Position numbers and translations under genes: made by a program. 64,000 nt of DNA. Origin: Candidatus Parcubacteria bacterium (lineage in GTDB: Bacteria > Patescibacteriota > Patescibacteriia > Patescibacteriales > UBA12075). Each line of letters starts with the position of its first letter. Position 1 is the stretch's first letter. Positions 24,920-40,991 of the stretch are shown here, piece by piece. Under the pieces are notes generated by a model, which saw only the letters and a program-made list of their open reading frames with translations, was not told the origin of the DNA and ran no database searches. The DNA lies in assembly GCA_963814275.1 (NCBI GenBank), contig CAWFCE010000002.1, forward strand, positions 1,195,263 to 1,259,262, given 5' to 3'.

Positions 24920-25780
24920 TTATAATAAATCCCCGATTTCGTCAAATTTATTTACTGCAACTTTAGTATAAATTTGAGTGGTTTCCAGGCGAGCATGGCC
25001 CAGCAAAGACTGAATATATCTTAAGTTTACACCATTTTCTAAGAGGTGGGTAGCAAAGCTGTGGCGCAATGAATGAGCAGAAACCCGTTTTTTGATCCCG
25101 GCCCGATTTGCGGCCTCGGTGACAATTTTCTGGATGGTCCGAACCGTCAATTTCCCGGCCGAACGGAAGCTTTCGAACAAGAATTCGGCCGGATCATAGC
25201 CGCGGATGTATTGCCCGATGTTTTCCAACACTGTCCCGGACACGATCGTCACCCGGTCCTTGTTGCCCTTGCCGGCCTGGATCCGGATTATTTTTCGGTC
25301 AAAGTCGATATCATAAACCCGCAAATTCACAAGTTCGCTCACCCGCATGCCGGTGGTATAAAGCACCTGGATGATGAGTTTATGTTTTATATTTCCTGCT
25401 ACCTCTATCATCCCAATGATTTCTTTTTTCGCCAGCACAACCGGTATCCTGGAGCCCATTTTGGGCCGCTTGATCCGGATTTCCCCGGCAAAAAAATTCC
25501 TCTTTAAAATTTGCGTGTAATAGAATTTAATGGCGTTGATCGCCAGGTTCAAGGTCGCCGGCGCCCGGCCGCTCACCAGAAGCCAATCCAGATAATCTTT
25601 TATATCCTGCGCGTTTAAATCATCGCTGAATTTGTTTGCAAATCTAAGCAATTCCTTGGTATAATAAACATAAGCCTTTACCGTTTTTTGGCTATAATTC
25701 CGTATTCTCAATTCCTGCTCCAAGTTATAAAACAAATCCCTTTTTAAAGTAGTAGAACGATTTAAATCTGATGGTAGCAT
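24920..25780 (-). CDS. tyrosine recombinase, integron-integrase-like N-terminus but Xer-sized (array 1 recombinase)
   Basis: 286 aa. SAM-like core-binding domain (IRNYSQKTVKAYVYY..., RIPVVLAKKEI); catalytic set TGMRVSE, GKGNKDR, HSLRHSFATH, LLGH, QIYTKV. It is divergent from and 78 bp away from the first GTTRRRY site. Confidence 0.85.
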   Translation of the reverse strand: MLPSDLNRSTTLKRDLFYNLEQELRIRNYSQKTVKAYVYYTKELLRFANKFSDDLNAQDIKDYLDWLLVSGRAPATLNLAINAIKFYYTQILKRNFFAGEIRIKRPKMGSRIPVVLAKKEIIGMIEVAGNIKHKLIIQVLYTTGMRVSELVNLRVYDIDFDRKIIRIQAGKGNKDRVTIVSGTVLENIGQYIRGYDPAEFLFESFRSAGKLTVRTIQKIVTEAANRAGIKKRVSAHSLRHSFATHLLENGVNLRYIQSLLGHARLETTQIYTKVAVNKFDEIGDLL

Positions 25781-25850: not shown

Positions 25851-25864
25851 ATAACCAGTTAGAT
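25851..25864 (+). other. attI-like site of array 1 (ATAACCAGTTAGAT)
   Basis: First GTTRRRY box (GTTAGAT, 25858-25864) after the recombinase gene. The ATAACCAGTT prefix is shared with array 2 (58890-58899). It is complementary to the R'' of cassette 1. Confidence 0.5.
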
Positions 25865-25902
25865 GAAATAATTAAATTATTTTCTGCTACGCAGAAAAAT
25901 TA

Positions 25903-27126
25903 TTGGGGCAAATTTATTTTTTTTATGAATATGAAGAAAAAATTCAAAAACCAACTCCTGAAAACAATCAAGAGTCACAAGCTGATATTTTACCTGAAAC
26001 ATACACCAAAGCCCGCACTCAAGAGATTAATCAGCAAATTAATTCATATCAGGGACCAAAAAACTCTGTAGATTTGGTATCCAAAACCAAAGAGATACAA
26101 GAAAACTACAAGCAATACATGGAAGAATCAGATGCTGAAGGAAGCCAAGAAACATTACAGCTTTTTCAAAAAAAAATGCAGGCAGAGATTGATTTCTATA
26201 AAAAAGAGTTTGATAAATTTAATGATCTGCAAAGGCTAGAAACCGTCTCTAATATATTAAAACCAGAAGATTTTCAGCTCTATGAAAAAATTCTAGGCAA
26301 CAAGGAAGGAAACACAGATGATTTATTTGATTCCCGCGGTAAAGTAATTCACGCCACAAATTCAACTGCACTAGATATAATATCTGATGTTAATACAATT
26401 TCTGGAGGAACAAGGCAGCTTGGACCTTCTTTCTCTGACGGAGATCACGACATCGCAATCACTTTTAATCTTGTGTGGGAAAAATTAAAAACGCCAGGAG
26501 GCATAGATAAAACCCACAAAAAAATTGACCTTGATGAATATCCACAATTCCCCAGTAAATATAATGAATTTGTTGATTGGGCAGTGCAAAGATTAAAAAA
26601 TGAATATGGCGAGGGAGAAAAGTTTGAAATGGAAAAAAACAAACTTCTTGCAAAAGCTGAAAAACATAACGAAGATAAATCAGTCCTCCACGATACTGAA
26701 GAACAGTACACTCAAGAATTAAAAGATATGGCATATGGCACGCTTAAACCGAAGTGGATAAAAGACGGGCTTAGCGAAGAAGAAGCTGAAAATAAAGTAA
26801 AAGAATATATTGAAAATCAAAACCATTTTAAAAACAGGCTAAAAAACCGACCTCAAAATGAAGTAGCCTTCCCTGTTACACTTGCATTTATTAAAAATGA
26901 GCTACCTGAACTTGTGCCTGAAGGTGGTGAAAGAGAATTTGAACTAAGAACAGAAGAAGAAATTAAGCTTGATAATGCCTCTACCATATTTGTTCCTGAA
27001 AAATATCTAAATAGCAGACTTGTTAGAAAAATAAATCAGGTTTATCCTAATATAGACATAAGAACAGAGGAGGAGTTGGAATTTGTAAGAATGAATAAAT
27101 TATTAAATAAAATAAATTTGCCCTAA
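25903..27126 (+). CDS. hypothetical Lys/Glu-rich protein (cassette 1)
   Basis: 407-aa ORF. Start uncertain: the TTG at 25903 lies inside the cassette inverted repeat and the first in-frame ATG is at 26119. Confidence 0.5.
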   Translation: MGQIYFFYEYEEKIQKPTPENNQESQADILPETYTKARTQEINQQINSYQGPKNSVDLVSKTKEIQENYKQYMEESDAEGSQETLQLFQKKMQAEIDFYKKEFDKFNDLQRLETVSNILKPEDFQLYEKILGNKEGNTDDLFDSRGKVIHATNSTALDIISDVNTISGGTRQLGPSFSDGDHDIAITFNLVWEKLKTPGGIDKTHKKIDLDEYPQFPSKYNEFVDWAVQRLKNEYGEGEKFEMEKNKLLAKAEKHNEDKSVLHDTEEQYTQELKDMAYGTLKPKWIKDGLSEEEAENKVKEYIENQNHFKNRLKNRPQNEVAFPVTLAFIKNELPELVPEGGEREFELRTEEEIKLDNASTIFVPEKYLNSRLVRKINQVYPNIDIRTEEELEFVRMNKLLNKINLP

Positions 27127-27162
27127 TAATAACTCGCTTCGCTCGTTGAATTTAATTACATC

Positions 27163-27254
27163 ATCTAACAGCGTGTATACGGTTCGCGCTTGGCTATCGC
27201 CAAATGCTCACCCAAATTTGCTTCGCAAACTTCGTATACACACGAACGTTAGGC
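27163..27254 (+). repeat. attC-like site 1
   Basis: R'' ATCTAAC (27163-69) is the reverse complement of the upstream GTTAGAT. It is followed by stem GTGTATACG / CGTATACAC, GGTTCG, hairpin H1 TTGGC-TATC-GCCAA, CACCCAAATT, hairpin TTTGC-TTCG-CAAA and ACTTCG. R' is GTTAGGC (27248-54). Confidence 0.75.
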
Positions 27255-27318
27255 GCAACAATAAAAAGCCTCTTTAATTAATTTAATAATTTTGGCAATT
27301 TATTTGCCCAATAAAACT

Positions 27319-27702
27319 ATGATAAAACCAGACCAAAATTTAGGAAAATTTTTTTCCAAAGAAGACCAATCCATTGAAAAGGAAACTGATTTAAAACAAC
27401 TTCAAGATTTCGCCGTATTATACCATGAAAAAAACATGCCTGAAGATCAGGAGAAAAAATTTATTTCATTGGCGCAAAAATACATAGACGAGAATCATGA
27501 TGGAACATACTATAATGAAGGCAATACAGATTATATTTATGTGCAACTTCCAAACGGACTATACTTAGAAGCTGATGCACATCTCAGAAGTAACACCTTT
27601 TATTTTTCCGGAGTACTATCAAAAGAAGATGCAGAAAAAAGAATAGACATGTTAGCAAAACAACGGGAAGAAGATATAAAAGCAGCTTTAGATAAAGAAT
27701 AA
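27319..27702 (+). CDS. hypothetical protein (cassette 2)
   Basis: ATG at 27319. The track start at 27292 reads through the cassette inverted repeat. 127 aa. Confidence 0.5.
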   Translation: MIKPDQNLGKFFSKEDQSIEKETDLKQLQDFAVLYHEKNMPEDQEKKFISLAQKYIDENHDGTYYNEGNTDYIYVQLPNGLYLEADAHLRSNTFYFSGVLSKEDAEKRIDMLAKQREEDIKAALDKE

Positions 27703-27842
27703 ACAAATTGCCAAAATTAATTTAAATAGCGGAGGAGGCTTTTTATTACTCGCTCCACTCCGTTCCGCGCCGCGCTGCGCTCTCACCCTCAAATTTTATG
27801 ATTATTAACTTTAATAAGGTATAAAATTTGAGTCTTCGGGGC

Positions 27843-27941
27843 GTATAACAACGCGATATACGGTTCGGCCCTCGGCCCGGGCCTCACCCAAATTGCAATC
27901 CCCTTCGGGTCTTGCAACTTCGTATATCGGTGATGTTGTGT
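27843..27941 (+). repeat. attC-like site 2
   Basis: Degenerate R'' GTATAAC; CGATATACGG / CGTATATCGG stems; GGTTCG; H1 GGCCC-TCG-GCCCGGGCC; CACCCAAATT; H2 GCAATCCCC-TTCG-GGTCTTGC; ACTTCG. R' is GTTGTGT (27935-41). Near-identical to site 14 except for H2. Preceded by an extra hairpin module at 27749-27842. Confidence 0.7.
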
Positions 27942-28006
27942 GAAATAATTAAATTATTTTTGCTCCGCAAAAATTGTTAGGGCAAATTTATTTAATCTTT
28001 AATCTT

Positions 28007-28456
28007 ATGAAACTCTATCATGGTTCACCAAATAGTTTTGATACAATTCGTAAAAGTCAGGCGCAAGCAGGTGATGATATTAAAGTGCCAGATGATGAAT
28101 TATTAAACGCGATTTATTTAACCCCAAATTATGAATTTGCTTTGGCCATCGCTTCGATGCCGGAAGGTGCTGCCAACATCGACAATGAAACCAAAACAAT
28201 CAAGTTTGAAAATCCTGAAGCATTCGACCCAGAAAAAGAAGTTTATATTTATGAAGTTGATAGTGAATTAATCCCGAAAGAAAATTTAAAAGAAGTTGAC
28301 GAGCTTCAAATTGCGATTTTAAACACCGATGAAATAAAGCCAACAATAAAACATGTTTGCAAAGCTGGTGATGTTGAGAAATATTATGAAATAAAAAAAG
28401 AAATTTTAGAGGCTAAAAACGAAACTAAAATATCACCTGAGTTCAAGATTAAATAA
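28007..28456 (+). CDS. hypothetical protein (cassette 3)
   Basis: ATG at 28007 (MKLYHGSPNSF). The track start at 27974 lies in the inverted repeat GGGCAAATTTATTT. Confidence 0.5.
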   Translation: MKLYHGSPNSFDTIRKSQAQAGDDIKVPDDELLNAIYLTPNYEFALAIASMPEGAANIDNETKTIKFENPEAFDPEKEVYIYEVDSELIPKENLKEVDELQIAILNTDEIKPTIKHVCKAGDVEKYYEIKKEILEAKNETKISPEFKIK

Positions 28457-28500
28457 ATTTGCCCTAACAACTCGCTATCGCTCGTTAATTTAATTACATC

Positions 28501-28627
28501 ACACAACACCGCGATAAACGGCTCGGTCTTTATTCAAAGACCTCGCGCAAATTTCTGTTTTCTCTTTTGTGATTAATTTAATAATGTAGAGAAGACAGAA
28601 ACTTCGCTTCATCGGGAAACATTATGT
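28501..28627 (+). repeat. attC-like site 3
   Basis: R'' ACACAAC is the reverse complement of the upstream GTTGTGT. CCGCGATAAACGG / CGCTTCATCGGG stems with conserved bulges; GCGCAAATT; long H2 with an ATTAATTTAATAAT loop; ACTTCG. R' is ATTATGT. Confidence 0.72.
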
Positions 28628-28686
28628 GAAATATGTTTTTACTCTTGGGCTAACGCCCCAACTTTTATATAATAAATTTAATTTTT

Positions 28687-29136
28687 ATGAATAACCTAAA
28701 ATATACGAAACCACTAAACATTTTTTTGCTTTTAGTAGCTATTGTCTTATTAGCTGGTTGCTCAAATAAATATTTTGAAAAAAATTTGGAGTGCGAGAAA
28801 CAAAAAGACATGCTTCAATACAACAGCGATAATTACAGCAAGGATACCAACACAATTATCAGTAAAATTCAAAAAGTATTTTACAGTCCAAAAGCAAAAA
28901 AATGTTTGTATGTTAGTGTCTCTGCAATCGATTTTAATTCGCCTAATAATATGACTGCTCTAACACAGAAAGACTATTCAGACGGAGCAAGATGGAAGCT
29001 CCGGACAATTTCAGGCGAATTAGTTGAAGATTTGCTAATTAACACTGAAGATGAAAAAATGGCTGTTTTTGGAGCAGAGCCACAACATACAGATTCATAT
29101 GAAGAATTTGAAAACCTTGTTAAAAAATGGGAATAA
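28687..29136 (+). CDS. putative lipoprotein (cassette 4)
   Basis: 149 aa. Signal peptide with lipobox LLAGC. Confidence 0.55.
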   Translation: MNNLKYTKPLNIFLLLVAIVLLAGCSNKYFEKNLECEKQKDMLQYNSDNYSKDTNTIISKIQKVFYSPKAKKCLYVSVSAIDFNSPNNMTALTQKDYSDGARWKLRTISGELVEDLLINTEDEKMAVFGAEPQHTDSYEEFENLVKKWE

Positions 29137-29200
29137 AAAATTAAATTTATTATATAAAAGCAATTCCGCATAAGCGGAATTAAGAGCAAAAACATACATC

Positions 29201-29657
29201 ACATAACAATGAATATGCGGTTCACAAATTAAAAATTATTCCTTATAATTATCAAAATATATGAAAAAAATATTAGTATTCGCGGTCGTTGTCTTGTTAA
29301 TAATTTTAGTGTTTAGCTGGTGGAATAAATCCCCAGAAGCTACATGGCAGGGTTCCTATTACAAACACGGACAACAAGAAAACGAAGTGTATGGACCAAT
29401 TTTTACTAATTTTGATGGCTGTAAAGCGTGGGCATTAGGAAAAATAGTTTATAACGACGACACAGCTAACTGTAGTAAAAATTGTCATGACGCTTTGGGA
29501 GACGGCACCCCTGTGTGTGAGGAAGTTGTTAGAAATTGGGCACCGCTTCCGGGCAGTTACACTTTTGATAATTATAAGGAATAATTTTTAATTTGTTCAC
29601 CCAAATTTTTGTTCCGCTTCGCTACACAAAAACTTCGCATATTCATAAACGTTAGGC
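29201..29657 (+). repeat. attC-like site 4, split by a nested cassette (29225-29595)
   Basis: R'' ACATAAC matches the upstream TTATGT. L'' AATGAATATGCG (29208-19) pairs with L' CGCATATTCAT (29636-46). The insert is flanked by GTTCAC (29220-25 and 29595-600) and sits immediately 5' of CCAAATT. R' is GTTAGGC (29651-57). Confidence 0.72.
29261..29584 (+). CDS. small secreted/TM-anchored Cys-containing protein (nested cassette)
   Basis: 107 aa with an N-terminal hydrophobic helix. The ORF is bracketed by a perfect 32-bp inverted repeat (29225-29256 / 29564-29595), whose right arm encodes the last 6 codons plus the stop. Confidence 0.55.
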   Translation: MKKILVFAVVVLLIILVFSWWNKSPEATWQGSYYKHGQQENEVYGPIFTNFDGCKAWALGKIVYNDDTANCSKNCHDALGDGTPVCEEVVRNWAPLPGSYTFDNYKE

Positions 29658-29689
29658 GAAATAAATTTTTCGCTACTAATTTTAAACAT

Positions 29690-30283
29690 ATGAAAAAATT
29701 CTTTTTGGGCTTCGCAAGCTCGTTATTAATCACAATTCCCCTGATCGCTTTTTCTGCTGATTCACTGTCTACAAAACTAAAAGGAAAAATTTTGTTAGCA
29801 GTAGAAGATAAGGGTAAAACTTATTATGTCAATGAAGATGGAAACAGATACAGAATTACTGTTTCTACTGCACAAAAAATATTTGAAAAACTTGCATTGG
29901 GCATTACAAATGAAAATTTAAGTCAAATTCCAGAAAGTAACGTAGGTATCGACCCAGAAGAAAACAGCACCCAGGAAAATTGTGCTGCGCAAGAATCAGA
30001 ATTAAATGATTGGAAGAATTTGAATACAAAAAATGAAAATACCCTCAGTTCTTGCCTTAACACCCTCACTAGCTTGAAGGATTCTTATGCAGACCTAATT
30101 AACAAATACGAAGATTGCATAGGTGAGTGCAATTATGGCCCTACAGTTGATGCACTCATCGCCCAAAATAACGAGCTTGCTAAACAAAATGATGAACTTT
30201 TAGCTATATCTATTTACTGGGAAAATAGTGCTAACACATGGAAGGCTTACGCATATGGTTGCACTGGCTATACTAGTCAATAA
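29690..30283 (+). CDS. secreted protein with KGKILLxVExxGxxYYV motif (cassette 6)
   Basis: ATG at 29690 (MKKFFLGFASSLLITIPLIAFS signal peptide). The track start at 29609 reads through attC-like site 4. Confidence 0.55.
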   Translation: MKKFFLGFASSLLITIPLIAFSADSLSTKLKGKILLAVEDKGKTYYVNEDGNRYRITVSTAQKIFEKLALGITNENLSQIPESNVGIDPEENSTQENCAAQESELNDWKNLNTKNENTLSSCLNTLTSLKDSYADLINKYEDCIGECNYGPTVDALIAQNNELAKQNDELLAISIYWENSANTWKAYAYGCTGYTSQ

Positions 30284-30336
30284 AATTAGTAGCGAAAAAT
30301 TTACTCAAGGGTTCGCTCCTTGAATCCGCTCACCTC

Positions 30337-31028
30337 GCCTAACGCGGCGTATCTGGCTCCGCTGGCCGTAAAATAATTAATTTTTTTATGACGATATTAA
30401 AGCCCAGAAATAAACCTGGCTCAAATAGTTTGCAAAACAGATTAGGTGGAGCAGTTTATAATTTTCTGGACAAAGCAAAAAATAATGATAAATTTTTGTT
30501 AGACTACGAAAGGATTAAAGGTAAATGTACCTCTGGCAATTGGCAAATTAATGATTATTCTCCAATACTTTTGCCATTGGTTAAATACTATGAAAATAGC
30601 TTGTGGTTTATTTGTGATAAATTAGGCATATTTAACCAGATTAATGACGGCAAAAAACCCCATAGCTTAAGGGCATTTTTCGACACAAAAGAAACAGAAA
30701 TAAATATTTGGCTTTCTTCAAAAATTAATGATAATCTTAAATATAAAAAATTGTCCAGAAAATTATTTTCAACAATCGACGATTATGTTCAGAGAAATGA
30801 AGTTGTTCATTGCAACGAAATCATATCCTTTCCCGATTTGAGCAATTACGATAGTTTGCTTACTAAATTAAAAGAATTAGTTGAACTTTTATTTAATCAC
30901 AATTTATTACAAAAAAATTAATTATTTTACTAGCTCCGCCCAAATTTCGTTTCCGCTTTTTGTTGGCGCATCCGCGCAATTATAACAAAAAGCTACAACG
31001 AAACTTCAGATACGCCGAAATGTTATCG
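30337..31028 (+). repeat. attC-like site 6, split by a nested cassette (30363-30932)
   Basis: R'' GCCTAAC is the reverse complement of the upstream GTTAGGC. L'' GGCGTATCTG (30346-55) pairs with L' CAGATACGCC (31007-16). The direct repeat GCTCCGC occurs at 30356-62 and 30933-39, the latter abutting CCAAATTT. R' is GTTATCG (31022-28). Confidence 0.72.
30388..30921 (+). CDS. hypothetical protein (nested cassette)
   Basis: 177-aa ORF flanked by the 20-bp inverted repeat GTAAAATAATTAATTTTTTT (30368-87 / 30911-30). Confidence 0.5.
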   Translation: MTILKPRNKPGSNSLQNRLGGAVYNFLDKAKNNDKFLLDYERIKGKCTSGNWQINDYSPILLPLVKYYENSLWFICDKLGIFNQINDGKKPHSLRAFFDTKETEINIWLSSKINDNLKYKKLSRKLFSTIDDYVQRNEVVHCNEIISFPDLSNYDSLLTKLKELVELLFNHNLLQKN

Positions 31029-31120
31029 GAAATAAATTTTTTATCTTGGTGGTAATTTCAAGGTTTGCGCGTTTTGCCAAGACGAAAATTTGATTTTTTA
31101 TTTTTTAAAGAGGGGTAATT

Positions 31121-31609
31121 ATGAAATTAACCAAAGAAACTACCTCGGAAAAACTTCTTGATTTTGGCAAACAGATTTTCGAGATTTTACAAAGACTAGA
31201 TACCTCACCAATCGTTTACGGTAGTTTGGCATATTTTTATCATACGAAAGATACTAGTTTCCCGATTAGAGACATTGATTTGCTTTTGCCAGAATCAAAT
31301 TTTTCAAAAATATCTGAAATGCTCGACAAAGAAAAAAATGTCACATACAATGTGATGCCATATCATAGTATAGAGGTATTCAGAGACGGTCTCGAAATCG
31401 ACATCGATTCTATCGAACATTTTTTAGATCCGAGATCTAGAGAATTTCATAAATCAACGATAAACGACCTCGATTTGAATATTTTAAATAAAGAGTCCTT
31501 GGCAAGCATTTACAAAGAAGCCTTGGATAACATGCCGCAAGAGAAAAAACTCGATGAAAAAAGAAATAAGTATCAAAAGAAGTTAGACAATCTCCAAAAA
31601 TTACTTTAA
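31121..31609 (+). CDS. hypothetical protein, possible minimal nucleotidyltransferase fold (cassette 8)
   Basis: 162 aa with SD AAGAGGGG. YGSLAYFYH...IRDIDLLLPE resembles the GS...DxD motif of Pol-beta-type nucleotidyltransferases; this is a weak call. Confidence 0.4.
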   Translation: MKLTKETTSEKLLDFGKQIFEILQRLDTSPIVYGSLAYFYHTKDTSFPIRDIDLLLPESNFSKISEMLDKEKNVTYNVMPYHSIEVFRDGLEIDIDSIEHFLDPRSREFHKSTINDLDLNILNKESLASIYKEALDNMPQEKKLDEKRNKYQKKLDNLQKLL

Positions 31610-31734
31610 TAAGGAGTTTTTATTTTTGGCCATTCACCCCTACCCCTCTGGCCAAAAATAAAAACAAAAAATCAAATTTTCTTTTAACGTAGAAAAGCTA
31701 TCGGCCAGTAGCATGGAGATAAAAAATTTACATC

Positions 31735-31921
31735 CGATAACACGGCACATGCGGTTCAGAAATTTCTCGTTTTTTAGACTTTTCAATTAAGGTATGAGAA
31801 ATTTCCTCTCCCAAATTGCGCTGACTATATGGAAAGTTTAGTGGTATAATCAAGTTAAGCGATAATCAATAATTTTATCAATAAATAACGGCGCAACTTC
31901 GCATGTGCCGATACGTTAAAT
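31735..31921 (+). repeat. attC-like site 8
   Basis: R'' CGATAAC is the reverse complement of the upstream GTTATCG. GGCACATGCGG / CGCATGTGCC stems; GGTTCA; H1 GAAATTTCTC...GAGAAATTTC; CTCTCCCAAATT; long H2; AACTTCG. R' is GTTAAAT (31915-21). Confidence 0.72.
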
Positions 31922-32016
31922 GAAATTGGCTAATTGTTTAGTGTACACCATAGATGACACTATAGTGTACACTAATGTGGTAAATCAAAGTTAATCGCGA
32001 GCCAACTTCACTTAAC
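31916..32016 (+). other. conserved ORF-less cassette, copy 1 of 3
   Basis: GAAATTGGCT...TTAATCGCGAGCCAACTTC-ACTTAAC with internal palindrome TAGTGTACAC-N16-GTGTACACTA. Homologous copies are at 59441-59542 and 61297-61396. Confidence 0.6.
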
Positions 32017-32534
32017 AGGTGATATGCGGTTACAATTAAGGAAATATAGAATATAATTTTTACTAAAAAAATCCCCACGAACTGAATCGCAGGGACACGT
32101 TGGTTTTAGTCCATCTTTGGAAATTACACAATAAGGATTTTTGCTCTGCCTTCGACATTGTGAAAACCGATAAACACAGTATTGCGTCCGGTTTCCTTTA
32201 AACGTTTCAATGCTAACACGGCAGCTTCGGTACCAACGGTTTTTTCAAAATCTGATATGAGCTTTATGGCATCATCAATCGGATAATCATCAACTTCCAC
32301 TCCAACCATTGGTCCGTGCTTTTCTGGGTCATATTCTGATATCGGCGCTGTCTTTAATTCCATATTCCCTCCTTTTTATGAATTGTTGCTAGAAACTTAG
32401 CACGTGAATGCCAAAAACGCAAGTAAAAATTATTTTCTATATTTCTTTAATCTCCACCCAAATTCCTGCCCCTCTTTTTAGGATAAATTAATAATGAGTC
32501 GGGGCAGAAACTTCGCATATCAAAAATGTTAGGC
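32010..32534 (+). repeat. attC-like site 9, split by a nested reverse-oriented cassette (32034-32451)
   Basis: R'' ACTTAAC. L'' GGTGATATGCG (32018-28) pairs with L' CGCATATCA (32513-21). ACCCAAATT and the H2 stem CCTGCCCC...GGGGCAG follow. R' is GTTAGGC (32528-34). This is a paralog of the array 2 site at 59536-60215. Confidence 0.7.
32124..32363 (-). CDS. hypothetical 79-aa protein (reverse-oriented nested cassette)
   Basis: Strong SD (AGGAGGG) 7 nt upstream of the ATG on the minus strand. The cassette is bounded by a roughly 29-bp inverted repeat (32034-63 / 32423-51). Confidence 0.55.
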   Translation of the reverse strand: MELKTAPISEYDPEKHGPMVGVEVDDYPIDDAIKLISDFEKTVGTEAAVLALKRLKETGRNTVFIGFHNVEGRAKILIV

Positions 32535-32559
32535 GAAATTTATTTTCAATTTAAAATTT

Positions 32560-33396
32560 ATGAGTTCGGATACTATAACCAATTACTACGATTACACCCT
32601 GCCATTTTATAGATTTTTTTATCACGGCAAGAGCAATGCCGTTCATTATGGCTTTTGGAACAATGGAGTTAAAAATCACCAGGAAGCTTTATTGAACGTA
32701 AATAAATTTTTGGCTGACACGGTTAAGATAAAATCAGATGATAGTGTTTTAGACGCGGGTTGCGGAATTGGAGGTAGCGCGATTTGGCTGGCACAGAATT
32801 ACAATGTTCGAGTTGATGGCATAACCATAAGTGAAAAACAGTTAGAGGAAGCCAAAAATTTATCTACCAAATATAATGTTGACCATATCGTAAATTTTTA
32901 TCAAAGAAATTTTTTAAATACCAAATTTAACGATAGTTCCTATAACATAGTTTTGGCGATTGAAAGCGTGTGCCATGCCGAGAACAAAAAGGACTTTATC
33001 AAAGAAGCGTACCGGGTACTTAAAAACGGCGGACGATTGATTGTTGATGATGGATTTCTTTTGCGAAGTCCGAAAAATAAACACGAGCAAAAAGATTTAA
33101 ATGCATTTTTAGAGGGCATGGCACTCTCCAATCTTGCTTTTGAAACAGACTTTAAAAAATCTCTTGAAGATGTTGGATTTAAAAATATAAAAATTTACGA
33201 CAAGGTCAACGAAACGATTCCTTCTTCAAAAAAAATCTATAAAATGTCAATTTTTAGTTATCCTTTATCTATAATTCTCGAAAAACTAAAACTTACACCA
33301 CCATTATTAACCAAAAATAATTTAGCGGGAATAACACAATACAGGATAATTAAAAATGGGATAATGGGACACCGAGTATTTTACGCTGAAAAATAA
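32560..33396 (+). CDS. class I SAM-dependent methyltransferase (cassette 11)
   Basis: 278 aa. Motif I VLDAGCGIGGSAIWLA; post-I and motif II/III spacing (LKNGGRLIVDD). Confidence 0.8.
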   Translation: MSSDTITNYYDYTLPFYRFFYHGKSNAVHYGFWNNGVKNHQEALLNVNKFLADTVKIKSDDSVLDAGCGIGGSAIWLAQNYNVRVDGITISEKQLEEAKNLSTKYNVDHIVNFYQRNFLNTKFNDSSYNIVLAIESVCHAENKKDFIKEAYRVLKNGGRLIVDDGFLLRSPKNKHEQKDLNAFLEGMALSNLAFETDFKKSLEDVGFKNIKIYDKVNETIPSSKKIYKMSIFSYPLSIILEKLKLTPPLLTKNNLAGITQYRIIKNGIMGHRVFYAEK

Positions 33397-33419
33397 ATTT
33401 TAAATTGAAAATAAACATC

Positions 33420-33573
33420 GCCTAACACCGCGATAAGCGGCTCCAGAAAAGTTCCTTAATTAAATATAATAATGAGTAAACTTTTCTTCCGACCCAAATT
33501 TCTATTTTTCTTTTCTTATTAATTTTAATATTGAAAAAAAATAGAAACTTCGCTTCATCGGGAAACGTTGTGT
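33420..33573 (+). repeat. attC-like site 11
   Basis: R'' GCCTAAC is the reverse complement of the upstream GTTAGGC. CCGCGATAAGCGG / CGCTTCATCGGG stems; GGCTCC; H1 33445-87; CCCAAATT 33493-500; H2 33501-45; AACTTCG 33546-52. R' is GTTGTGT (33567-73). Confidence 0.75.
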
Positions 33574-33639
33574 GAAATAATGTCCTTAAACAAAATATTT
33601 TAGGTGGTGCTAATTCAAAAGAAAAAGGAGGGAGGTATT

Positions 33640-33852
33640 ATGGTAATCATCAATAAACTTGGCAGATTATTAAAAGACCATTCAGAAACTTTTATTCTTT
33701 TTTTAGCGGGTATAATATTAACCCTATACGGGATTTTGAAAGCATTGCCTTTTATTGATTGGGCGCAGAAAGGTCAATTTTCGAGTGAGTTTACTATTTT
33801 ACTTGGAATACTTCTGCTATTCTTTGGACTTCGTTCATTATTAAACAAATAA
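33640..33852 (+). CDS. small two-TM membrane protein (cassette 12)
   Basis: ATG at 33640 preceded by AAGGAGGGAGG. 70 aa. Confidence 0.55.
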   Translation: MVIINKLGRLLKDHSETFILFLAGIILTLYGILKALPFIDWAQKGQFSSEFTILLGILLLFFGLRSLLNK

Positions 33853-33955
33853 ATTGATTATTCTCGCGGGGAACACTTTCCCCGCACCACCTAAAATATT
33901 TTGTTAGCTTCTATTCAGAAGCTGTTTGCTCAATCGCAAACAAGGACATTACATC

Positions 33956-34073
33956 ACACAACAACGCGACAAGCGATTCGGTCTTTATTCAAAGACCTCA
34001 CTCAAATTTTTGAAATGATTATTAACTTTAATAATGAATTTCAAAAACTTCGCTTCGTCGGTATACGTTATAT
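33956..34073 (+). repeat. attC-like site 12
   Basis: R'' ACACAAC is the reverse complement of the upstream GTTGTGT. H1 GGTCTTTATTCAAAGACC; CACTCAAATT; H2 TTTGAAATG...ATTTCAAA; ACTTCG. R' is GTTATAT (34067-73). Confidence 0.72.
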
Positions 34074-34090
34074 GAAATTAAAAATTCCCT

Positions 34091-34603
34091 ATGAGCATTA
34101 AACAAGATTGGAAAAGTCCCAAAGTTGATATAAAAGATAGTCCGATTGGAGGAAAAGGCATTTTTGCTAATTCCAATATTAAACGAGGTGAAAAAATCAT
34201 CGTCTGGGGAGGAAATTATACTGATGCTGTTGGTGCGCAAAAAGCAAAAGAAAAAGGTATGCTAGTATTTCAATGGGACGATGACCTTTATAGCTACGAA
34301 GATAGAGGGAAAGACGATGGGTACTACATAAACCATTCCTGTAACCCTAATCTATGGATGACAGATGCATACACTTTAACAGCTATGAGAGATATTAATG
34401 CTGGTGAAGAAATTACAATAGATTATGCGTTGTTCGAGGAAGATGATTATATTTCAAAATGGAAATGCAACTGCGGTTCATCGTTATGCCGCGGCCGGGT
34501 TACAGGAGAGGATTGGAAAAGCATAGTGCTACAAAAACGCTATAAAGGACATTTTTCACCTCTCTTAAATAAACGGATCCAGAAATTACAAGATAATAAA
34601 TAA
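34091..34603 (+). CDS. SET domain protein (cassette 13)
   Basis: 170 aa. YINHSCNPN and EEITIDY SET motifs plus the post-SET CNCGSSLCRG. Confidence 0.8.
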   Translation: MSIKQDWKSPKVDIKDSPIGGKGIFANSNIKRGEKIIVWGGNYTDAVGAQKAKEKGMLVFQWDDDLYSYEDRGKDDGYYINHSCNPNLWMTDAYTLTAMRDINAGEEITIDYALFEEDDYISKWKCNCGSSLCRGRVTGEDWKSIVLQKRYKGHFSPLLNKRIQKLQDNK

Positions 34604-34627
34604 TTCACGGCGGGAATTTTTAACATC

Positions 34628-34772
34628 ATATAACACCGCGATAAGCGGTTCCAGAAAATTTCCTTTATTAATGATAATAATGAATAAAATTTTCTTCCAC
34701 CCAAATTTTGCAAATGAATATTAATTTTAATAAGGTATTTGCAAAACTTCGCTTCATCGGGAAACGTTAGGC
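34628..34772 (+). repeat. attC-like site 13
   Basis: R'' ATATAAC is the reverse complement of the upstream GTTATAT. Same family as sites 3, 11 and 17. R' is GTTAGGC (34766-72). Confidence 0.75.
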
Positions 34773-34800
34773 GAAATAATTTATCAATAATTAAATTTCT

Positions 34801-35150
34801 ATGGGAATAGACAACAAGCCTTTTACGGCAGAGCAACTCCAGGAACAGATTAATTTTTTTGGAATTGATTGCACTGTAAAAAAACACCTGGAGAAAAATA
34901 TATATTTTTTAGTTGTGACTCTATGGAAGACGCGGAATCAATAGTAGTAAGTTTTTGGGGAAAAAGAGATCAATCAGTTGTTGACGGCCTTAACCGAGGC
35001 ATGCTAAAACCTAGTCATGAAATTACTACAGGTGCCAGAACGGAAATCACTGAAATCGGAGGCAAAGCAACATTAATTATTAGTGAAAACGGTGCTCCAC
35101 TTTCGGAAAAAACAATTTCAGCATTAGAAGATGGAGGATTTACAATTTAA
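34801..35150 (+). pseudogene. hypothetical cassette gene with a frame break at an A7 run (cassette 14)
   Basis: The ATG at 34801 opens MGIDNKPFTAEQLQEQINFFGIDCTVKK. After the A7 run (about 34877-34883) the reading continues in another frame as TPGEKYIFFSCDSMEDAES... to 35150; one extra A would fuse the two frames. Alternatively an intact ORF could start at ATG 34923. Confidence 0.4.
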
Positions 35151-35232
35151 TTATTGATAAATTACTCAAGGGGGCGCTGCGCTTCAGGTCTGCCTTTTAC
35201 AATTAATAATATTGAGAGCAGACCTGACCCTC

Positions 35233-35331
35233 GCCTAACAACGCGATATGCGGTTCGGCCCTCGGCTCGGGCCTCACCCAAATTTTCTTTCACTTCGTTC
35301 AAGAAAACTTCGTATATCGGTGATGTTGTAC
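35233..35331 (+). repeat. attC-like site 14
   Basis: R'' GCCTAAC is the reverse complement of the upstream GTTAGGC. Near-identical to site 2 apart from H2. R' is GTTGTAC (35325-31). Preceded by a hairpin module at 35165-35232. Confidence 0.75.
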
Positions 35332-35359
35332 GAAATAAAAATTTAATTATTTTGCTACC

Positions 35360-36079
35360 ATGAAATTCAAGGAAGCATACAAACACATAAACCCCACCGA
35401 ATACATAAATATTTTTTCCAACCCTCAATGGTATTTGGAAATACAAGCTGAACTAAAGGATTTTTTTTATGATTATGACGGCAATAAGGATAACAAATCG
35501 CAAGAATGGCTTGAAAAAAGGAAAGAATTTGTAAAAATGGTTTGTGAACTTTTAGAAGCTGGCAAAGTTGCTCTTGGCGACTCTGGTATAAACTGGGATA
35601 AAGACCGTTTACCCATAGATACAATTGTTATACATCATACGAGCACGCCATCAGACACCCCCGTTATAGCCATTGATGCACTGGGATTGATTCGTTTGTA
35701 TGCACCGAATTACAGCAAAAAAAATGAGGAGCAATTTGGCCAGCCAATATGGTCAAACCATTTTTGCAAAAATCAACAAACATTCGTTGCTTATCATTAC
35801 ATAATCAGACAGGATGGTTCTTTTGAACACATATTACAAGATGACCAAATAGGTTGGCATTGTGGCAATTGGGATTATAACTGCAGAAGTATTGCGATTT
35901 GTTTTCTTGGTGATTTAAAAGAAAAAAAACCGACTGAAAAAGCACTTCAAACGGCGAATGAAATCATAAAAAAATATCCAAATTGTAATATATTCGGTCA
36001 TAGAGAAATTAAACCCACAACAACTTGCCCAGGTAATCTGTTTCTAGGGAAAGAGGGTTGGAAAACGACATATTTCTAA
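35360..36079 (+). CDS. N-acetylmuramoyl-L-alanine amidase (amidase_2/PGRP fold) (cassette 15)
   Basis: 239 aa. IVIHHTSTP...AYHYIIRQDG...GWHCGNWDYNCRSIAICFLG...GHREI...TCPG. Confidence 0.75.
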   Translation: MKFKEAYKHINPTEYINIFSNPQWYLEIQAELKDFFYDYDGNKDNKSQEWLEKRKEFVKMVCELLEAGKVALGDSGINWDKDRLPIDTIVIHHTSTPSDTPVIAIDALGLIRLYAPNYSKKNEEQFGQPIWSNHFCKNQQTFVAYHYIIRQDGSFEHILQDDQIGWHCGNWDYNCRSIAICFLGDLKEKKPTEKALQTANEIIKKYPNCNIFGHREIKPTTTCPGNLFLGKEGWKTTYF

Positions 36080-36107
36080 GAACGCAAAATAATTAAATTT
36101 TTACATC

Positions 36108-36186
36108 GTACAACACTGAATATCTGGTTCCGTTATCGCTCCACCCAAATTGCTGACGCAACTTCAGATATTCAGAAACGTTATCG
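36108..36186 (+). repeat. attC-like site 15 (shortest, 79 bp)
   Basis: R'' GTACAAC is the reverse complement of the upstream GTTGTAC. CTGAATATCTGG / CAGATATTCAG stems; GGTTCC; CCACCCAAATT; hairpin GCTGACGCAA; CTTCAG. R' is GTTATCG (36180-86). Confidence 0.75.
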
Positions 36187-36253
36187 GAAATATTGCTCAT
36201 TAAAATATTTTTTTGTAAGAGGGCTTGAAATTAACTATCAAAGGAGGATTGTA

Positions 36254-36544
36254 ATGAAGAAAAAATCTTTACACAACGTTGGAGATTTGGTCGTATTTAA
36301 TGAAACCAAAGAATTTGGGAACAAAAATGACCGTATATTTCACATCCACGCCATTCGATATGGCAAATGCACTGGAATTCCTAAAAAACAATATTGGTTC
36401 GCTGGTTTCCTGCTGGAAATTGGAAAACACGAGAGTGAGGGTTTACCTCAAATTCCAGTTTTTGCAACAACCTTAACCAACGCTTCCGAAAATCAATTGA
36501 GTTCATTAGAGCATCTACAATGCCGTTTCAACCCATGGAAATAA
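36254..36544 (+). CDS. hypothetical protein (cassette 16)
   Basis: 96 aa. SD AAAGGAGGA upstream of the ATG. Confidence 0.5.
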   Translation: MKKKSLHNVGDLVVFNETKEFGNKNDRIFHIHAIRYGKCTGIPKKQYWFAGFLLEIGKHESEGLPQIPVFATTLTNASENQLSSLEHLQCRFNPWK

Positions 36545-36651
36545 TCTACGCCCTTTGTCTTCGCGGGAATAAACAATATTCCCGCCCTCTTTTCAAAAAA
36601 ATATTTTTGCTGGCTTATCAGCCAACGGCTATCACTAATGAGCAATATATC

Positions 36652-36759
36652 CGATAACAGCACGCTATCCGGTTCGCGCTTGCCCTGTCGGGCAAATGCT
36701 CACCCAAATCCCGACTCCGATTCACTACATCGGGACTTCGGATATCGGCATATGTTATG
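36652..36759 (+). repeat. attC-like site 16
   Basis: R'' CGATAAC is the reverse complement of the upstream GTTATCG. Family shared with sites 18, 23 and 24 (GCACG.TATCCGG ... CCGATATC). H1 stem TTGCCC/GGGCAA. R' is GTTATGT (36753-59). Confidence 0.75.
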
Positions 36760-36815
36760 TGAAATTTAAGTTGTGGCCTTAATTAAATTTAATATATTCA
36801 ATAACTTCTCTCTTA

Positions 36816-37208
36816 ATGATAAAACAAGTTTCATTGTTAATATTATTTGATAAAGATAAGCGCATTTTATTGCAACATCGTTCCGAAGATCAAGAAGGAT
36901 TACCTGGCTATTGGGCTTTTTTTGGTGGTCATATTGAAAACGGCGAAACACCAGAGCAGGCATTACTGAGAGAGTCTGAGGAGGAATTAGAGTATATGCC
37001 GGAAAACCCCCGCCTAGTTATGACTCAGGATTTTATGCACGACAATATACGACATAGAAAATACGTTTATTTAGAGGAATATAATAACAGCAAACTTGTT
37101 CAACACGAGGGTCAAGCTATGGGATGGTACCATTTAGGCGAAATACAAAAATTAAAAATGGTAGACCACGACCGAGAAGTTATTGATTATATTAAAAACA
37201 AATATTGA
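36816..37208 (+). CDS. NUDIX hydrolase (cassette 17; duplicated at 60271-60663)
   Basis: 130 aa. Nudix box [23 protein letters not shown]. Protein sequence identical to the array 2 copy. Confidence 0.85.
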
Positions 37209-37227
37209 GTGCCACAACTTAAACATC

Positions 37228-37433
37228 ACATAACACCGCGATAAGCGGCTCCAGAAAATTTTCTTTATTAATATTAAACAGGAATAAAATTTTCTACCGG
37301 CCCAAATTTCATTTCAGTTTTCTGATGAACGTTCAATAAACGTTCATCGCTCCACGATTGTCTGATATTGATAATAATCGATTCTAAAACGGAAAACTGA
37401 AGTGAAACTTCGCTTCATCGGGAAATGTTAAAT
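37228..37433 (+). repeat. attC-like site 17 (206 bp)
   Basis: R'' ACATAAC is the reverse complement of the upstream GTTATGT. Long branched H2. R' is GTTAAAT (37427-33). Duplicated with the NUDIX cassette in array 2. Confidence 0.72.
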
Positions 37434-37497
37434 GAAATATCTAAAACAAATTCCCTATCGGGAATTTTATCTGCAAGTTTATAATTAATTTTCTTAT

Positions 37498-38160
37498 ATG
37501 AAAAACAAATTTTTTTTACTATTAATCTTAGTCATTATCTTAGCTGGGTGCAATAAACAAAACACAAGTATTAATTTAACCCCAGATAATCAAACTAAAA
37601 ATATTTCAAACTCAACAAACGATACTAATACATCAATACAGGAAAACGTAGAAGCAAAAAACAATATTCCCGAAGAAAAACCAACAGAAATTAAGCAAGA
37701 AGACGATATAAAAATACAAAATATTAATAATAAAAAAAGTTATCAAAATTTAACAACTGGGTTTAGCTTAGAATTTCCAGAGGCATTAATATTCAGGAAT
37801 AACGCTTTTTACACCGAGGTAAACTGGGACGGTATTGTAAATAAAAAAACTGACCATATGTACGTTCCTGAATTTACTGTCCGTTTTGCATCTGATGTGT
37901 CATTAGATGAATTTATTTATAATTCGATTAACCCAAATTATAAAAATCATTTTAATTCAAACAAAAACAAAATCAAAGAACAAAAAACAATAGGAAATAA
38001 TAAATTCTTTATGATAAACAGTAAAAATTTTGATAGCAATGGTTGTAGTTACTATATAGAAAATAATAAAAATATAATGAGATTAAGTACCGCATATAAC
38101 TGCGGTGAAAACGAATTAATAGAAAACGTTTTGATATCTATTAAAACAACAGAAAATTAA
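37498..38160 (+). CDS. putative lipoprotein (cassette 18)
   Basis: 220 aa. Signal peptide with lipobox ILAGC; Asn/Lys-rich. Confidence 0.55.
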   Translation: MKNKFFLLLILVIILAGCNKQNTSINLTPDNQTKNISNSTNDTNTSIQENVEAKNNIPEEKPTEIKQEDDIKIQNINNKKSYQNLTTGFSLEFPEALIFRNNAFYTEVNWDGIVNKKTDHMYVPEFTVRFASDVSLDEFIYNSINPNYKNHFNSNKNKIKEQKTIGNNKFFMINSKNFDSNGCSYYIENNKNIMRLSTAYNCGENELIENVLISIKTTEN

Positions 38161-38212
38161 TTATAAACTTGCAGATTATTTTTGCTATCGCAAAAATGGT
38201 TTTAGATACAGC

Positions 38213-38318
38213 ACATAACAGCACGATATCCGGTTCGCGCTTTCCTTCGGAAAATGCTCACGCAAATCCCGACTCCGTTTCACTGCGTCGGGACTTCGGA
38301 TATCGGCATACGTTAGGC
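38213..38318 (+). repeat. attC-like site 18
   Basis: R'' ACATAAC has 2 mismatches to the upstream GTTAAAT. Paralog of site 16 with a compensatory H1 stem TTTCC/GGAAA. R' is GTTAGGC (38312-18). Confidence 0.68.
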
Positions 38319-38347
38319 GAAATTTAAAATTTATCTTTATCTCAATT

Positions 38348-38638
38348 ATGTCATTAAACAAACTAAAACATTTTAAAAAACCTTGGGTAATTGGTCTTAT
38401 TGTTGGTATAATCCTAGCCATCGGAAATATATTACTTGCCGGAATTCCAGGGATTATCTTATTTGAAAACACTTTAGATCCGGTACAATCAATTTCTGGT
38501 TGTGCAGGAGAAGACTGTTGGGGTCCATCTGCACTTTATGGTAGTGTAATTTTCTTAATTGTCGGGTTTTTATTTGGTTACCTTGTTGGAATATTTATAA
38601 ATAGATCCTTGAGCAAAGTAGATAAAGATAAATTTTAA
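38348..38638 (+). CDS. small membrane protein (cassette 19)
   Basis: 96 aa, 3 TM helices. The 3' end (GATAAAGATAAATTTTAA) is part of the cassette inverted repeat. Confidence 0.5.
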   Translation: MSLNKLKHFKKPWVIGLIVGIILAIGNILLAGIPGIILFENTLDPVQSISGCAGEDCWGPSALYGSVIFLIVGFLFGYLVGIFINRSLSKVDKDKF

Positions 38639-38712
38639 ACTCAAGGGGGCGCTGCGCTTTCGTCCCGCCCTTTGAATAATATAATTTAATATTGTAGGCG
38701 TGACGAACCCTC

Positions 38713-38811
38713 GCCTAACACCGAGTATACGGAAAAAGGCTCAACTCGCCTTTTTCCCAAATTCGCCTTCGTTTCACTCCGGCGAACTTCGTATACTCGG
38801 AAACGTTATCG
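38713..38811 (+). repeat. attC-like site 19
   Basis: R'' GCCTAAC is the reverse complement of the upstream GTTAGGC. CCGAGTATACGG / CGTATACTCGG stems; H1 AAAAAGGC...GCCTTTTT; CCCAAATT. R' is GTTATCG (38805-11). Preceded by a hairpin module at 38640-38712. Confidence 0.75.
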
Positions 38812-38845
38812 GAAATTACACTTTTTAAAAAATAATTTTATTATT

Positions 38846-39511
38846 ATGAACCATAAACTAAAACCCTTAATCTATAGTTTGATATTTGCTACACCAATAT
38901 ATTTATATGCCACATACGTGTTTAGCTATATTCCAGATTATGATAGTAGCTTTCCTTTTGACAAAGAAGCGTTTTTCTTTGTCCCAGTCTTAACCTATGG
39001 CATCTCAATATTGCTATTCCACATAATTTATATGAAAGCTACAATAAATATTGTTAAAGGTTTTAACGAATACAAAAGAAACAACAAAAAAAAGTATTTA
39101 TATCAAAATTTATTCACCTTTTTGATAGTTTTATCATTCGCCCACCTGTCTTTGGTGGCGCCAAGATACATGCAATCAATAATATTCGTACTTTATTTAA
39201 TAATTTATATTTTAATTATAAAAATCCCCAATCAATACCTTCGCGCTGAATTCAATAACTATAAAAAATATTTTAGAGATGCTAATATATTCAACTTTGT
39301 ATTATCATTCGTGGTTCTTATAAATACTTTTTTATTTATTAGATTCGCAGGAAATATTACCGGAAACGAGGTAGGTGACTTTTTGGCCCTAGTTTATACG
39401 AGTGGATTTTTGTTGTTTCTTTTGTTTGCTTCATTTGTCGTAAATGTATTTATATTACTAATTCATAAAAATTATTTAACAAAAAAACATAACCAACCAC
39501 AAGGTTCATAA
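38846..39511 (+). CDS. polytopic membrane protein (cassette 20)
   Basis: 221 aa with about 6 TM helices. Confidence 0.5.
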   Translation: MNHKLKPLIYSLIFATPIYLYATYVFSYIPDYDSSFPFDKEAFFFVPVLTYGISILLFHIIYMKATINIVKGFNEYKRNNKKKYLYQNLFTFLIVLSFAHLSLVAPRYMQSIIFVLYLIIYILIIKIPNQYLRAEFNNYKKYFRDANIFNFVLSFVVLINTFLFIRFAGNITGNEVGDFLALVYTSGFLLFLLFASFVVNVFILLIHKNYLTKKHNQPQGS

Positions 39512-39589
39512 TAATAAAATTATTTCTTTATTTGGGCTATTCGCCCAAATGTCCTTCCCTATCGGTCAGGACTAAAAAGTGTAACTGTC

Positions 39590-39726
39590 CGATAACAGCG
39601 TATATCAGGTTCCGACTCCCCTGTCGGTGAGCCTCCACCCAAATTCGGTCTCCATAATTTGCTGGTGCTCCGCACAATTTTAGAAAATTACTACGACTGT
39701 ACTTCTAATATACGCATATGTTAGAT
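39590..39726 (+). repeat. attC-like site 20
   Basis: R'' CGATAAC is the reverse complement of the upstream GTTATCG. GGTTCC; CCACCCAAATT. R' is GTTAGAT (39720-26). Confidence 0.7.
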
Positions 39727-39763
39727 GAAATGACTCCATATTCATTACGTCACATCATCTAAC
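39721..39763 (+). other. minimal ORF-less cassette (43 bp)
   Basis: TTAGAT-GAAATGAC...GTCACATC-ATCTAAC: just a short inverted repeat between an R' and the next R''. Confidence 0.5.
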
Positions 39764-40944: not shown

Positions 40945-40991
40945 AATTTGCCCAAATAATACTCGCTATCGCTCGCGAATTTATTTACATC

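Follow-up and report, generated by a model that had tools for sequence, protein, structure and literature searches.

A conserved non-coding frame around unrelated genes in a family of integron-type cassettes

The question raised by this locus is why two gene cassettes that lie in separate arrays and carry unrelated genes begin with nearly the same leader. The window (the whole stretch of DNA analysed, 64,000 nucleotides (nt) from a contig of a Candidatus Parcubacteria bacterium) holds two arrays of integron-type cassettes, array 1 (25858–42970, + strand) and array 2 (58897–64000, + strand), the latter continuing past the window end. The leader under study, 31023–31120, stands in front of the open reading frame (ORF) of cassette 8 of array 1 (31023–31915 in the cassette map, which also places the start of array 2 at 58897). 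With modest confidence, we favour the reading that this segment is the 5' arm of a conserved non-coding chassis in a large family of integron-type cassettes, which extends the attC hairpin outward, also supplies a ribosome-binding site and is reused with different cargo.

Recurrence of the leader in front of unrelated genes

Both leader sequences quoted by the first-pass annotation were found where it had placed them. The leaders share exact 18- and 22-mers: block 1, GAAATAAATTTTTTATCT, is exact at 31029–31046 and 62356–62373, and block 2, GACGAAAATTTGATTTTTTATT, at 31081–31102 and 62406–62427. With up to three mismatches, block 1 had four matches in the window against 0.69 expected, the other close one being the reverse-complement copy at 31717–31734. 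For block 2, 0.01 chance matches were expected in the window and three were found, the third being the reverse-complement copy at 31663–31684. The purine-rich motif AGAGGGG is placed at 31109–31115, 5 nt before the ATG at 31121, and GAGGGG at 62436–62441. A global alignment of 31022–31117 with 62349–62447 gave 80 matches (81%), in agreement with the claimed similarity, and a score of 123 against 39 ± 7 (maximum 63) for shuffled sequences; since this score is far above the shuffles, the similarity is not confined to A/T runs. The nhmmer E-values were 2e-21 and 3e-23.

The ORFs behind the leaders had been described as unrelated, and blastp gave no significant match between them, the best being E = 0.12 over 16 amino acids (aa). 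The ORF of cassette 8 (31121–31609, + strand) encodes 162 aa of no confident family, with a weak nucleotidyltransferase hint (E = 0.11). The ORF of array 2 (62501–64000, + strand) is incomplete, with 499 aa in the window, and is secreted-looking, with a signal-peptide-like N-terminus and repeats of the DKNYY and TSP3 types; one repeat domain, of about 55 aa, is also present in the cargo of other complete framed cassettes.

The frame formed by the leader and its right-hand counterpart is abundant in public metagenomes, with more than 130 independent public contigs in all, from uncultured microbes of groundwater and sediment; Ga0172379 and Ga0209343 are among the groundwater samples with many such cassettes. 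The exact 22-mer of block 2 was present in 19 contigs of the GTDB species set, all metagenome-assembled genomes (MAGs), and in 18 of them it belonged to cassette leaders of the same layout, with the core box of an attC or attI directly before them. Patescibacteria accounted for 11 of the 19, the others being labelled Gammaproteobacteria, Bacteroidia, Algoriphagus and Methanoregula; these labels are those of MAG bins, in which binning errors are possible. The two-block pattern occurred in at least 120 metagenome contigs. Profile searches over 140 public contigs and the window detected 129 copies of the left arm and 144 of the right. Of the 90 left arms that could be evaluated (enough downstream sequence), 85 had a right arm behind them, at a median of 1.1 kb. 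GTT or ATT stood at the R-box position of 133 of 140 block-1 copies, and every copy examined adjoined R'/R'' or an attI box.

The 44 cargo proteins of complete framed cassettes fell into 34 blastp clusters, and their Pfam content was unrelated (SDR, Yip1 membrane protein, KilA-N, DUF4037, MFS transporter). Many cassette pairs had arms 85–90% identical and unrelated cargo. The earlier proposal that the frame is reused with different cargo is thus borne out by the pairing of the arms and the diversity of what they enclose; gene replacement inside a frame cannot be distinguished here from a single chassis whose copies were loaded with new genes time after time.

The cassette 8 cargo is a member of a small family, and the more distant members (55–60% aa identity) lie in ordinary housekeeping neighbourhoods without any frame. 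Its closest homologue (91% aa and 90% nt identity), in contig L141, is part of a fused unit of several ORFs, with a truncated leader at its head. This contig was considered as a frame-free reference for both junctions and was dropped for the 5' one, on account of the truncated leader and an apparent fusion scar. The homology to cassette 8 extends up to the stop codon and no further, and the 3' junction alone is informative. In the same contig, an attC L'' segment is joined to leader block 2 at a common GAAATTT (1660–1721), and a 25-nt spacer, TAAGAAGTTTAATTAAAGAAGAGTGATT (2384–2408), resembles a right-arm start joined to a leader end; such a junction would result if two framed genes had lost all of the backbone between them.

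Anatomy and predicted fold of the arms

In the left arm of the family, the R' box is followed by block 1 GAAATAAATTTTTTATCT, some 34 nt of spacer, block 2 (GAC)GAAAATTTGATTTTTT, and ATTTATTTAA-AGAGGGG. In cassette 8, all on the + strand, the R' core box GTTATCG (31022–31028) is complementary to R'' CGATAAC (31735–31741), the cassette beginning at the T at 31023. It is followed by block 1 (31029–31046), which is nearly invariant across the family, by the spacer (31047–31080), which is 64% conserved among left arms and has no complementarity to the right-arm spacer, by block 2 (31081–31105; GACGAAAATTTGATTTTTTATT and following bases, with the invariant core GAAAATTTGATTTTTT) and by the ribosome-binding motif AGAGGGG, nearly invariant in 80 leaders. 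The second left arm (62349–62447, + strand) comprises R' GTTGTAC (62349–62355), block 1, a spacer (62374–62405), block 2 and GAGGGG. Both leaders start directly after the G|TT crossover of attC-type sites.

Two continuations are found after AGAGGGG. In leaders without the stem named here hairpin A, ATG follows within 5–9 nt; alternatively, TAAGGnGTTTT with hairpin A is followed by an AT-rich run and ATG. The array-2 leader is of the second kind, with an extra segment before the ATG at 62501 that the first-pass annotation had left unremarked. This extension (62444–62480, + strand) consists of TAAGG, hairpin A (GTTTTC 62453–62458 / GAAAAC 62472–62477) and GATTTATT, and is common in the family. 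Its fold is weak here (z = −0.5); elsewhere in the family the stem of hairpin A differs between copies yet remains paired, a covariation that was judged by eye.

Several other properties of the leader were assessed. Comparison with Rfam gave no match at the gathering threshold over the whole window and, at E up to 10, noise only at both sites. A self-folding structured RNA was rejected, as RNAalifold gave no consensus pair in 80 leaders and the single-sequence folds, at z = +0.26 and +0.61, did not surpass those of shuffled sequences. A conserved leader peptide after the ribosome-binding motif was also rejected: GTG was present in only part of the leaders, and neither frames nor stops were conserved. 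No sigma-70 promoter (−35/−10, spacing 16–18 nt) was found on the + strand in 31022–31120 or 62349–62500, and no terminators were found in the leaders.

The first-pass annotation had described the leader as part of an inverted-repeat frame with a right arm at 31640–31734. The right arm exists but is longer, 31607–31741, and its complementarity to the left arm is restricted to two parts, one of about 25 nt (R box and block 1) and one of 16–22 nt (block 2), the spacers not being complementary. The order in the family is stop codon/TAAGGAG, hairpin B, AAAAAATCAAATTTTC, a spacer of about 35 nt, AGATAAAAAATTTACATC and R''. In cassette 8, on the + strand, the arm starts with the stop TAA, TAAGGAG and hairpin B (31607–31665; 17-base-pair (bp) stem 31616–31632 / 31649–31665, loop TTCACCCCTACCCCTC), continues with the reverse complement of block 2, AAAAAATCAAATTTTC (31666–31681), and ends with the reverse complement of block 1 (AGATAAAAAATTTACATC) and R'' CGATAAC (31717–31741). 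In 15 of 35 cassettes TAAGGAG itself provides the cargo stop codon through its TAA, and in four more the stop codon lies 3 nt upstream. A long perfect inverted repeat was rejected as a description of the frame: the spacers (about 35 nt) are side-specific, with conservation of 0.64 and 0.65 within each side, and the complementarity of a cassette's own arms was 0.515, against 0.514 for arms of different cassettes.

Hairpin B of cassette 8 had an RNA fold of −19.5 kcal/mol (z = −5.4). It was present in 58 of 66 non-redundant right arms, with about 16–17 bp, 48 different stems and a conserved CCCCT-rich loop, TTCACCCCTnnCCCCTC. The AGAGGGG region is complementary to the 3' part of this loop, and the complementarity was 7.58 nt within cassettes against 7.08 nt between cassettes, a value reached in 1 of 5000 permutations.

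When the backbone of cassette 8 (arms plus attC, 410 nt) was circularised and folded with DNA parameters, one rod of −72 kcal/mol was obtained for either strand (z = −7.8, bottom strand). In this predicted fold, blocks 1 and 2 continue the attC stem outward past the R box. The attC of cassette 8 (31735–31921, + strand) contains R'', L'', a loop, L' and R' (GTTAAAT, 31915–31921), and folds with R and L stems and an asymmetric 3-nt bulge. The array palindromes have RYYYAAC/GTTRRRY ends and an L''/L' pair, in the general form ...AYWTC-RYYYAAC ... CCCAAAT ... AACTTC-L'-GTTRNNN-GAAAT, the RRRY part of R' being loosely kept. The palindromes behave as attC sites.

Two further observations concern these sites. 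The R box is extended in all window attCs, GAAAT after R' lying opposite AYWTC before R'' (e.g., 31022–31033 with 31730–31741). The extension has conserved A.A and A.C mismatches, the latter becoming a G.T wobble on the bottom strand, which is the strand that integrons recombine. In addition, the long loop of the cassette 8 attC contains a near-consensus extended −10 promoter, CTGACT-18-TGgTATAAT (31821–31850, + strand), directed into the next cassette.

Most other cassettes of the window have the same layout with cassette-specific sequences, namely inverted repeats of 20–34 nt around the ORFs, often paired so that one lies beside the R box and one beside the ORF. For nearly every cassette ORF of both arrays, the inverted repeat ends at the start codon and resumes at the stop codon. 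The ORF-bracketing score had a median of 16 for cassettes and 6 for host ORFs (p = 1.7e-6), the 95th percentile of shuffled sequences being 8. A cassette with two ORFs (29652–31022) has a separate bracket for each of them.

A second shared inverted repeat, GGGCAAATTTATTT, brackets three unrelated ORFs of array 1 (25899–25925/27104–27130, 27974–27999/28445–28470 and 40361–40390/40931–40960) and recurs in contigs L033, L042 and L132. Because this second repeat also brackets unrelated ORFs, there are probably several frame families, of which the chassis studied here is one.

Function and origin of the frame

In the reading that we favour, the chassis comprises the left arm (TTRRRY of the R' box, block 1, spacer, block 2 and AGAGGGG), the right arm and the attC. 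Within the array the cargo ORF lies between the two arms; in an excised circle the arms would flank the attC and form about 400 nt of contiguous non-coding DNA. This DNA is predicted to fold as a single rod, in which blocks 1 and 2 lengthen the attC hairpin from the R box to the ORF edges. In the single-stranded circle after excision, the outer stem may clamp the R-box duplex, which is weak and AT-rich, and thereby aid reinsertion by the recombinase. The left arm would also provide translation start signals for any ORF loaded, and new cassettes could form by the placement of ORFs between AGAGGGG and TAAGGAG of an existing chassis. The contrast between invariant blocks and spacers of about 64% identity argues for selection on the sequence of the blocks. 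Further points in favour of this reading are the position of the leaders directly at the G|TT crossover, the regular pairing of left with right arms around unrelated cargo, the rod obtained for the circularised backbone, the similar layout of most other window cassettes, and the closeness of AGAGGGG to the ATG and of TAAGGAG to the stop codon.

Several points weigh against this proposal. Since the ORF stands between the arms in the array, the clamp is possible only in the excised circle, which for this system is a predicted form, and the non-complementary spacers leave large internal loops in the rod. The invariance of the blocks, rather than covariation, points to sequence-specific recognition by a partner or to a role in RNA, and argues for a sequence-specific constraint that neither the clamp nor an RNA model explains fully. 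The chassis is carried by only 2 of about 28 window cassettes, so the recombinases do not depend on it. None of the 85 arm pairs was an empty chassis (shortest gap 245 nt), and the loading of ORFs into a vector is therefore unproven. Finally, since the closest cargo homologue, in contig L141, lies in a fused, frame-derived context, it gives no independent view of the 5' junction.

The main rival is a role of the frame in RNA, which we regard as tentative; it is compatible with the clamp as a second function, so that both could hold together. The 5' and 3' untranslated regions (UTRs) of the cassette messenger RNA would pair through blocks 1 and 2, and the C-rich loop B, which resembles the anti-Shine–Dalgarno end of 16S ribosomal RNA, would bind AGAGGGG. 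The messenger would be closed around the ORF, and the translation of full-length transcripts could be throttled, or double-stranded sites for processing or stabilisation could be created. The co-orientation of cargo and leader is consistent with this, as are the ribosome-binding motif at the leader end, the strong fold of hairpin B through its 48 stem variants and the excess of complementarity within cassettes, in which GGGG-T-A pairs with T-A-CCCC and GGGG-A-A with T-T-CCCC. The repeats of other cassettes, which run up to the start codon and resume at the stop codon, and the separate brackets of the two-ORF cassette also fit a per-gene role. On the other hand, G.U pairs are rare in hairpin B (15 against 892 Watson–Crick pairs), and the conserved mismatch beside the R box is A.C on the transcribed strand, unfavourable in RNA, but a G.T wobble on the bottom DNA strand. 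Moreover, the inverted repeat continues straight into the R'/R'' recombination boxes, and no promoter consensus occurs in or near the leader.

A dedicated loading process is rather unlikely, in our estimation. The palindromic chassis would serve as a vector, ORFs trimmed near their start and stop codons would be placed at the outer tip of the extended attC hairpin, and one lineage, probably Patescibacteria, would act as a "cassette factory" exporting across phyla and into Archaea. If true, this would be the first concrete molecular picture of the origin of integron cassettes.

Common descent alone, with one recently spread cassette lineage whose arms hitch-hike and have no function beyond the attC and the ribosome-binding site, appears improbable. 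It would account for arms that are inherited together and for leader subtypes that partly track cargo families, such as the TAGTGGAGnTTTTAATATTTAGTG subtype with secreted repeat proteins. It does not sit well with blocks that have stayed invariant over at least 80 non-redundant leaders while the intervening spacer drifted to about 64%, nor with the retention of the same blocks, inverted, in the right arm. The near-perfect pairing of hairpin B through its stem variants, and the two-block inverted-repeat layout that unrelated window cassettes share with different sequences, also speak against it.

A miniature inverted-repeat transposable element (MITE) or a transposon with terminal inverted repeats, capturing genes and moving independently of the integron, would offer inverted-repeat structure of about 100 nt around variable cargo. 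This origin is very improbable and already contradicted, as every copy abuts R'/R'' or an attI core box. No target-site duplications, transposase or copies outside arrays were found, and viral contigs and PLSDB plasmids gave no matches to the frame. A chance resemblance of A/T-rich low-complexity sequence, or an assembly artefact, could be entertained in a region of 33% guanine plus cytosine (GC) rich in A/T runs, but it is refuted, with a negligible probability left to it, by the 22-mer counts, the alignment score, the nhmmer E-values and the number of independent contigs given above.

Arrays, recombinases and comparison with known systems

The GC profile of the window showed two islands at about 33% GC within a genome of 45–50% GC, each beginning beside a divergently oriented tyrosine recombinase gene. 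The islands consist of short co-oriented ORFs with imperfect palindromes between them. About 22 cassettes (33% GC) were assigned to array 1 from its attC-type repeats with R'' and R' boxes, the cassette map and the GC profile. A 673-nt NUDIX cassette is common to both arrays (36755–37427 and 60210–60882, about 98–99% identity), as a discrete mobile unit; the two copies are homologous from the R' box as far as the G of the following R', which supports crossover at G|TT. This shared cassette is direct evidence of cassette movement between the two arrays.

The low GC content was observed at 26000–42000 and 60000–64000 relative to the flanks, with 33% in the arrays and 45–50% in the surrounding genes. 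Distant relatives of the cargo lie among housekeeping genes of other contigs, one at 35% GC and one at 49% GC. From the gap between arrays and flanks and the GC of these contigs, the cassette pool seems to come from a lower-GC source differing from the host genome. This suggests that low-GC cassettes, probably derived from Patescibacteria, are stocked in genomes of quite different composition.

Some cassettes depart from the usual plan. ORFs occur inside the attC central loop, between L'' and L', at the sites 29224–29596, 32035–32451, 59560–60133 and 61421–61688; examples are 29261–29584, 32124–32363 (− strand), the NUDIX ORF 59588–60121 and 61458–61622. Each of these ORFs has its own inverted repeat of 24–34 nt, and such attC sites are 400–500 nt long. 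Where the gene sits in the attC loop, the normal cargo position is occupied by an ORF-less "mini-body" of about 100 nt, GTTRRRY-GAAATTGGCTTCAC ... GCCAACTTCAC-TTAAC (31916–32016, 59441–59552 and 61297–61405), with an internal hairpin and a weak promoter-like TTAGCA-17-TATAGA. A TTTACAT-like motif recurs in the attI region of array 2 (58860–58890).

The recombinase at the head of array 1 (24920–25780, − strand, 286 aa) has the Pfam domains Phage_integrase and Phage_int_SAM_4 and is XerA/Xer-like. That of array 2 (57970–58782, − strand, 270 aa) has the same two domains, is 40% identical to the first and is of the same short type. The cassettes begin about 80–115 nt away, on the opposite strand. 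The array-1 recombinase scored 249 bits against NCBIfam NF040815 (XerA; cutoff 220) and 209 against TIGR02249 (integron integrase; cutoff 265), the latter match being split into two stretches, and its best match in the PDB was the XerA-like 4a8e. In the alignment to VchIntIA (2a3v), IntI residues 9–171 and 245–305 were covered and 31 query residues lay opposite 172–244; the IntI-specific additional domain around patch III was not found. Both recombinases lack the IntI-specific insertion of about 40 aa, and yet they lie beside attC-type cassette arrays. This insertion is given as the defining feature of integron integrases by Messier and Roy (2001), as cited in PMC9668308. A homologous short recombinase, 45–61% identical to the two of the window, was found at 21 public loci with the frame. 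Arrays of attC sites headed by such short recombinases were not described in the literature searched, an absence that is no proof of novelty. Attachment-site arrays of the attC type are here run by Xer-like recombinases without the hallmark IntI domain, and standard integron finders would miss or misclassify them.

With pdif (Xer) modules of Acinetobacter plasmids, this system shares modules of diverse cargo bracketed by inverted sites for Xer-type tyrosine recombinases. The pdif sites are 28-bp double-stranded XerC/XerD sites, whereas the junctions in the window are attC-type hairpins of 60–190 nt, the modules have a single ORF and one orientation, and the recombinase stands at the array head. 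MITE-flanked integron mobilisation units and cargo MITEs also have inverted repeats of about 100 nt or more around a gene, but the frame described here has no target duplication or independent insertion sites, and its ends are integron core sites. The ORF-11/ORF-18 leaders of attI1 are similar in that a common upstream element gives a ribosome-binding site to cassettes without their own. Those leaders are part of attI and not of the cassette, have no 3' mirror and act through a short translated ORF; the frame leader, in contrast, has no conserved start codon.

The arrays resemble those of integron cassettes and attC sites (59-base elements) in most respects: mostly promoterless, co-oriented ORFs lie beside a divergent tyrosine recombinase gene, the cassettes end in imperfect palindromes with outer boxes of the RYYYAAC...GTTRRRY type, the crossover is at G|TT, the first cassette bases complement the cassette's own R'', and the same cassette may be present in two arrays. 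They differ from integrons in the recombinases, which are best matched by the XerA type and are without the IntI-specific insertion, in the conserved 5-nt extension of the R box with its two mismatches, and in a frame whose conserved and complementary sequence reaches the ORF boundaries, about 100 nt past R' and about 135 nt ahead of R''. A full-text literature search yielded no description of conserved cassette flanks that reach start and stop codons on both sides and occur across phyla, which is no proof of novelty.

The closest parallel to one highly similar non-coding repeat between many unrelated ORFs is given by the Vibrio cholerae repeats (VCR) of sedentary chromosomal integrons. Chromosomal integrons are known to have homogeneous attC families whose cargo is unrelated, and homogeneity of the VCR type is taken to mean that cassettes were built in one lineage from a common recombination site. 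The conservation of the VCR is not known to extend beyond the attC, from R'' to R', whereas the frame adds 5' and 3' UTR modules and occurs in contigs of several phyla and an archaeon, not in one species. The origin of integron cassettes is a long-standing open question, for which attC likeness within one chromosomal integron has been the usual clue. Here the conserved unit is much larger than the attC, and its defined 5' and 3' modules adjoin the start codon and the stop codon of genes that are unrelated; because it exceeds the attC and is abundant in metagenomes, the origin of cassettes becomes a countable and testable question.

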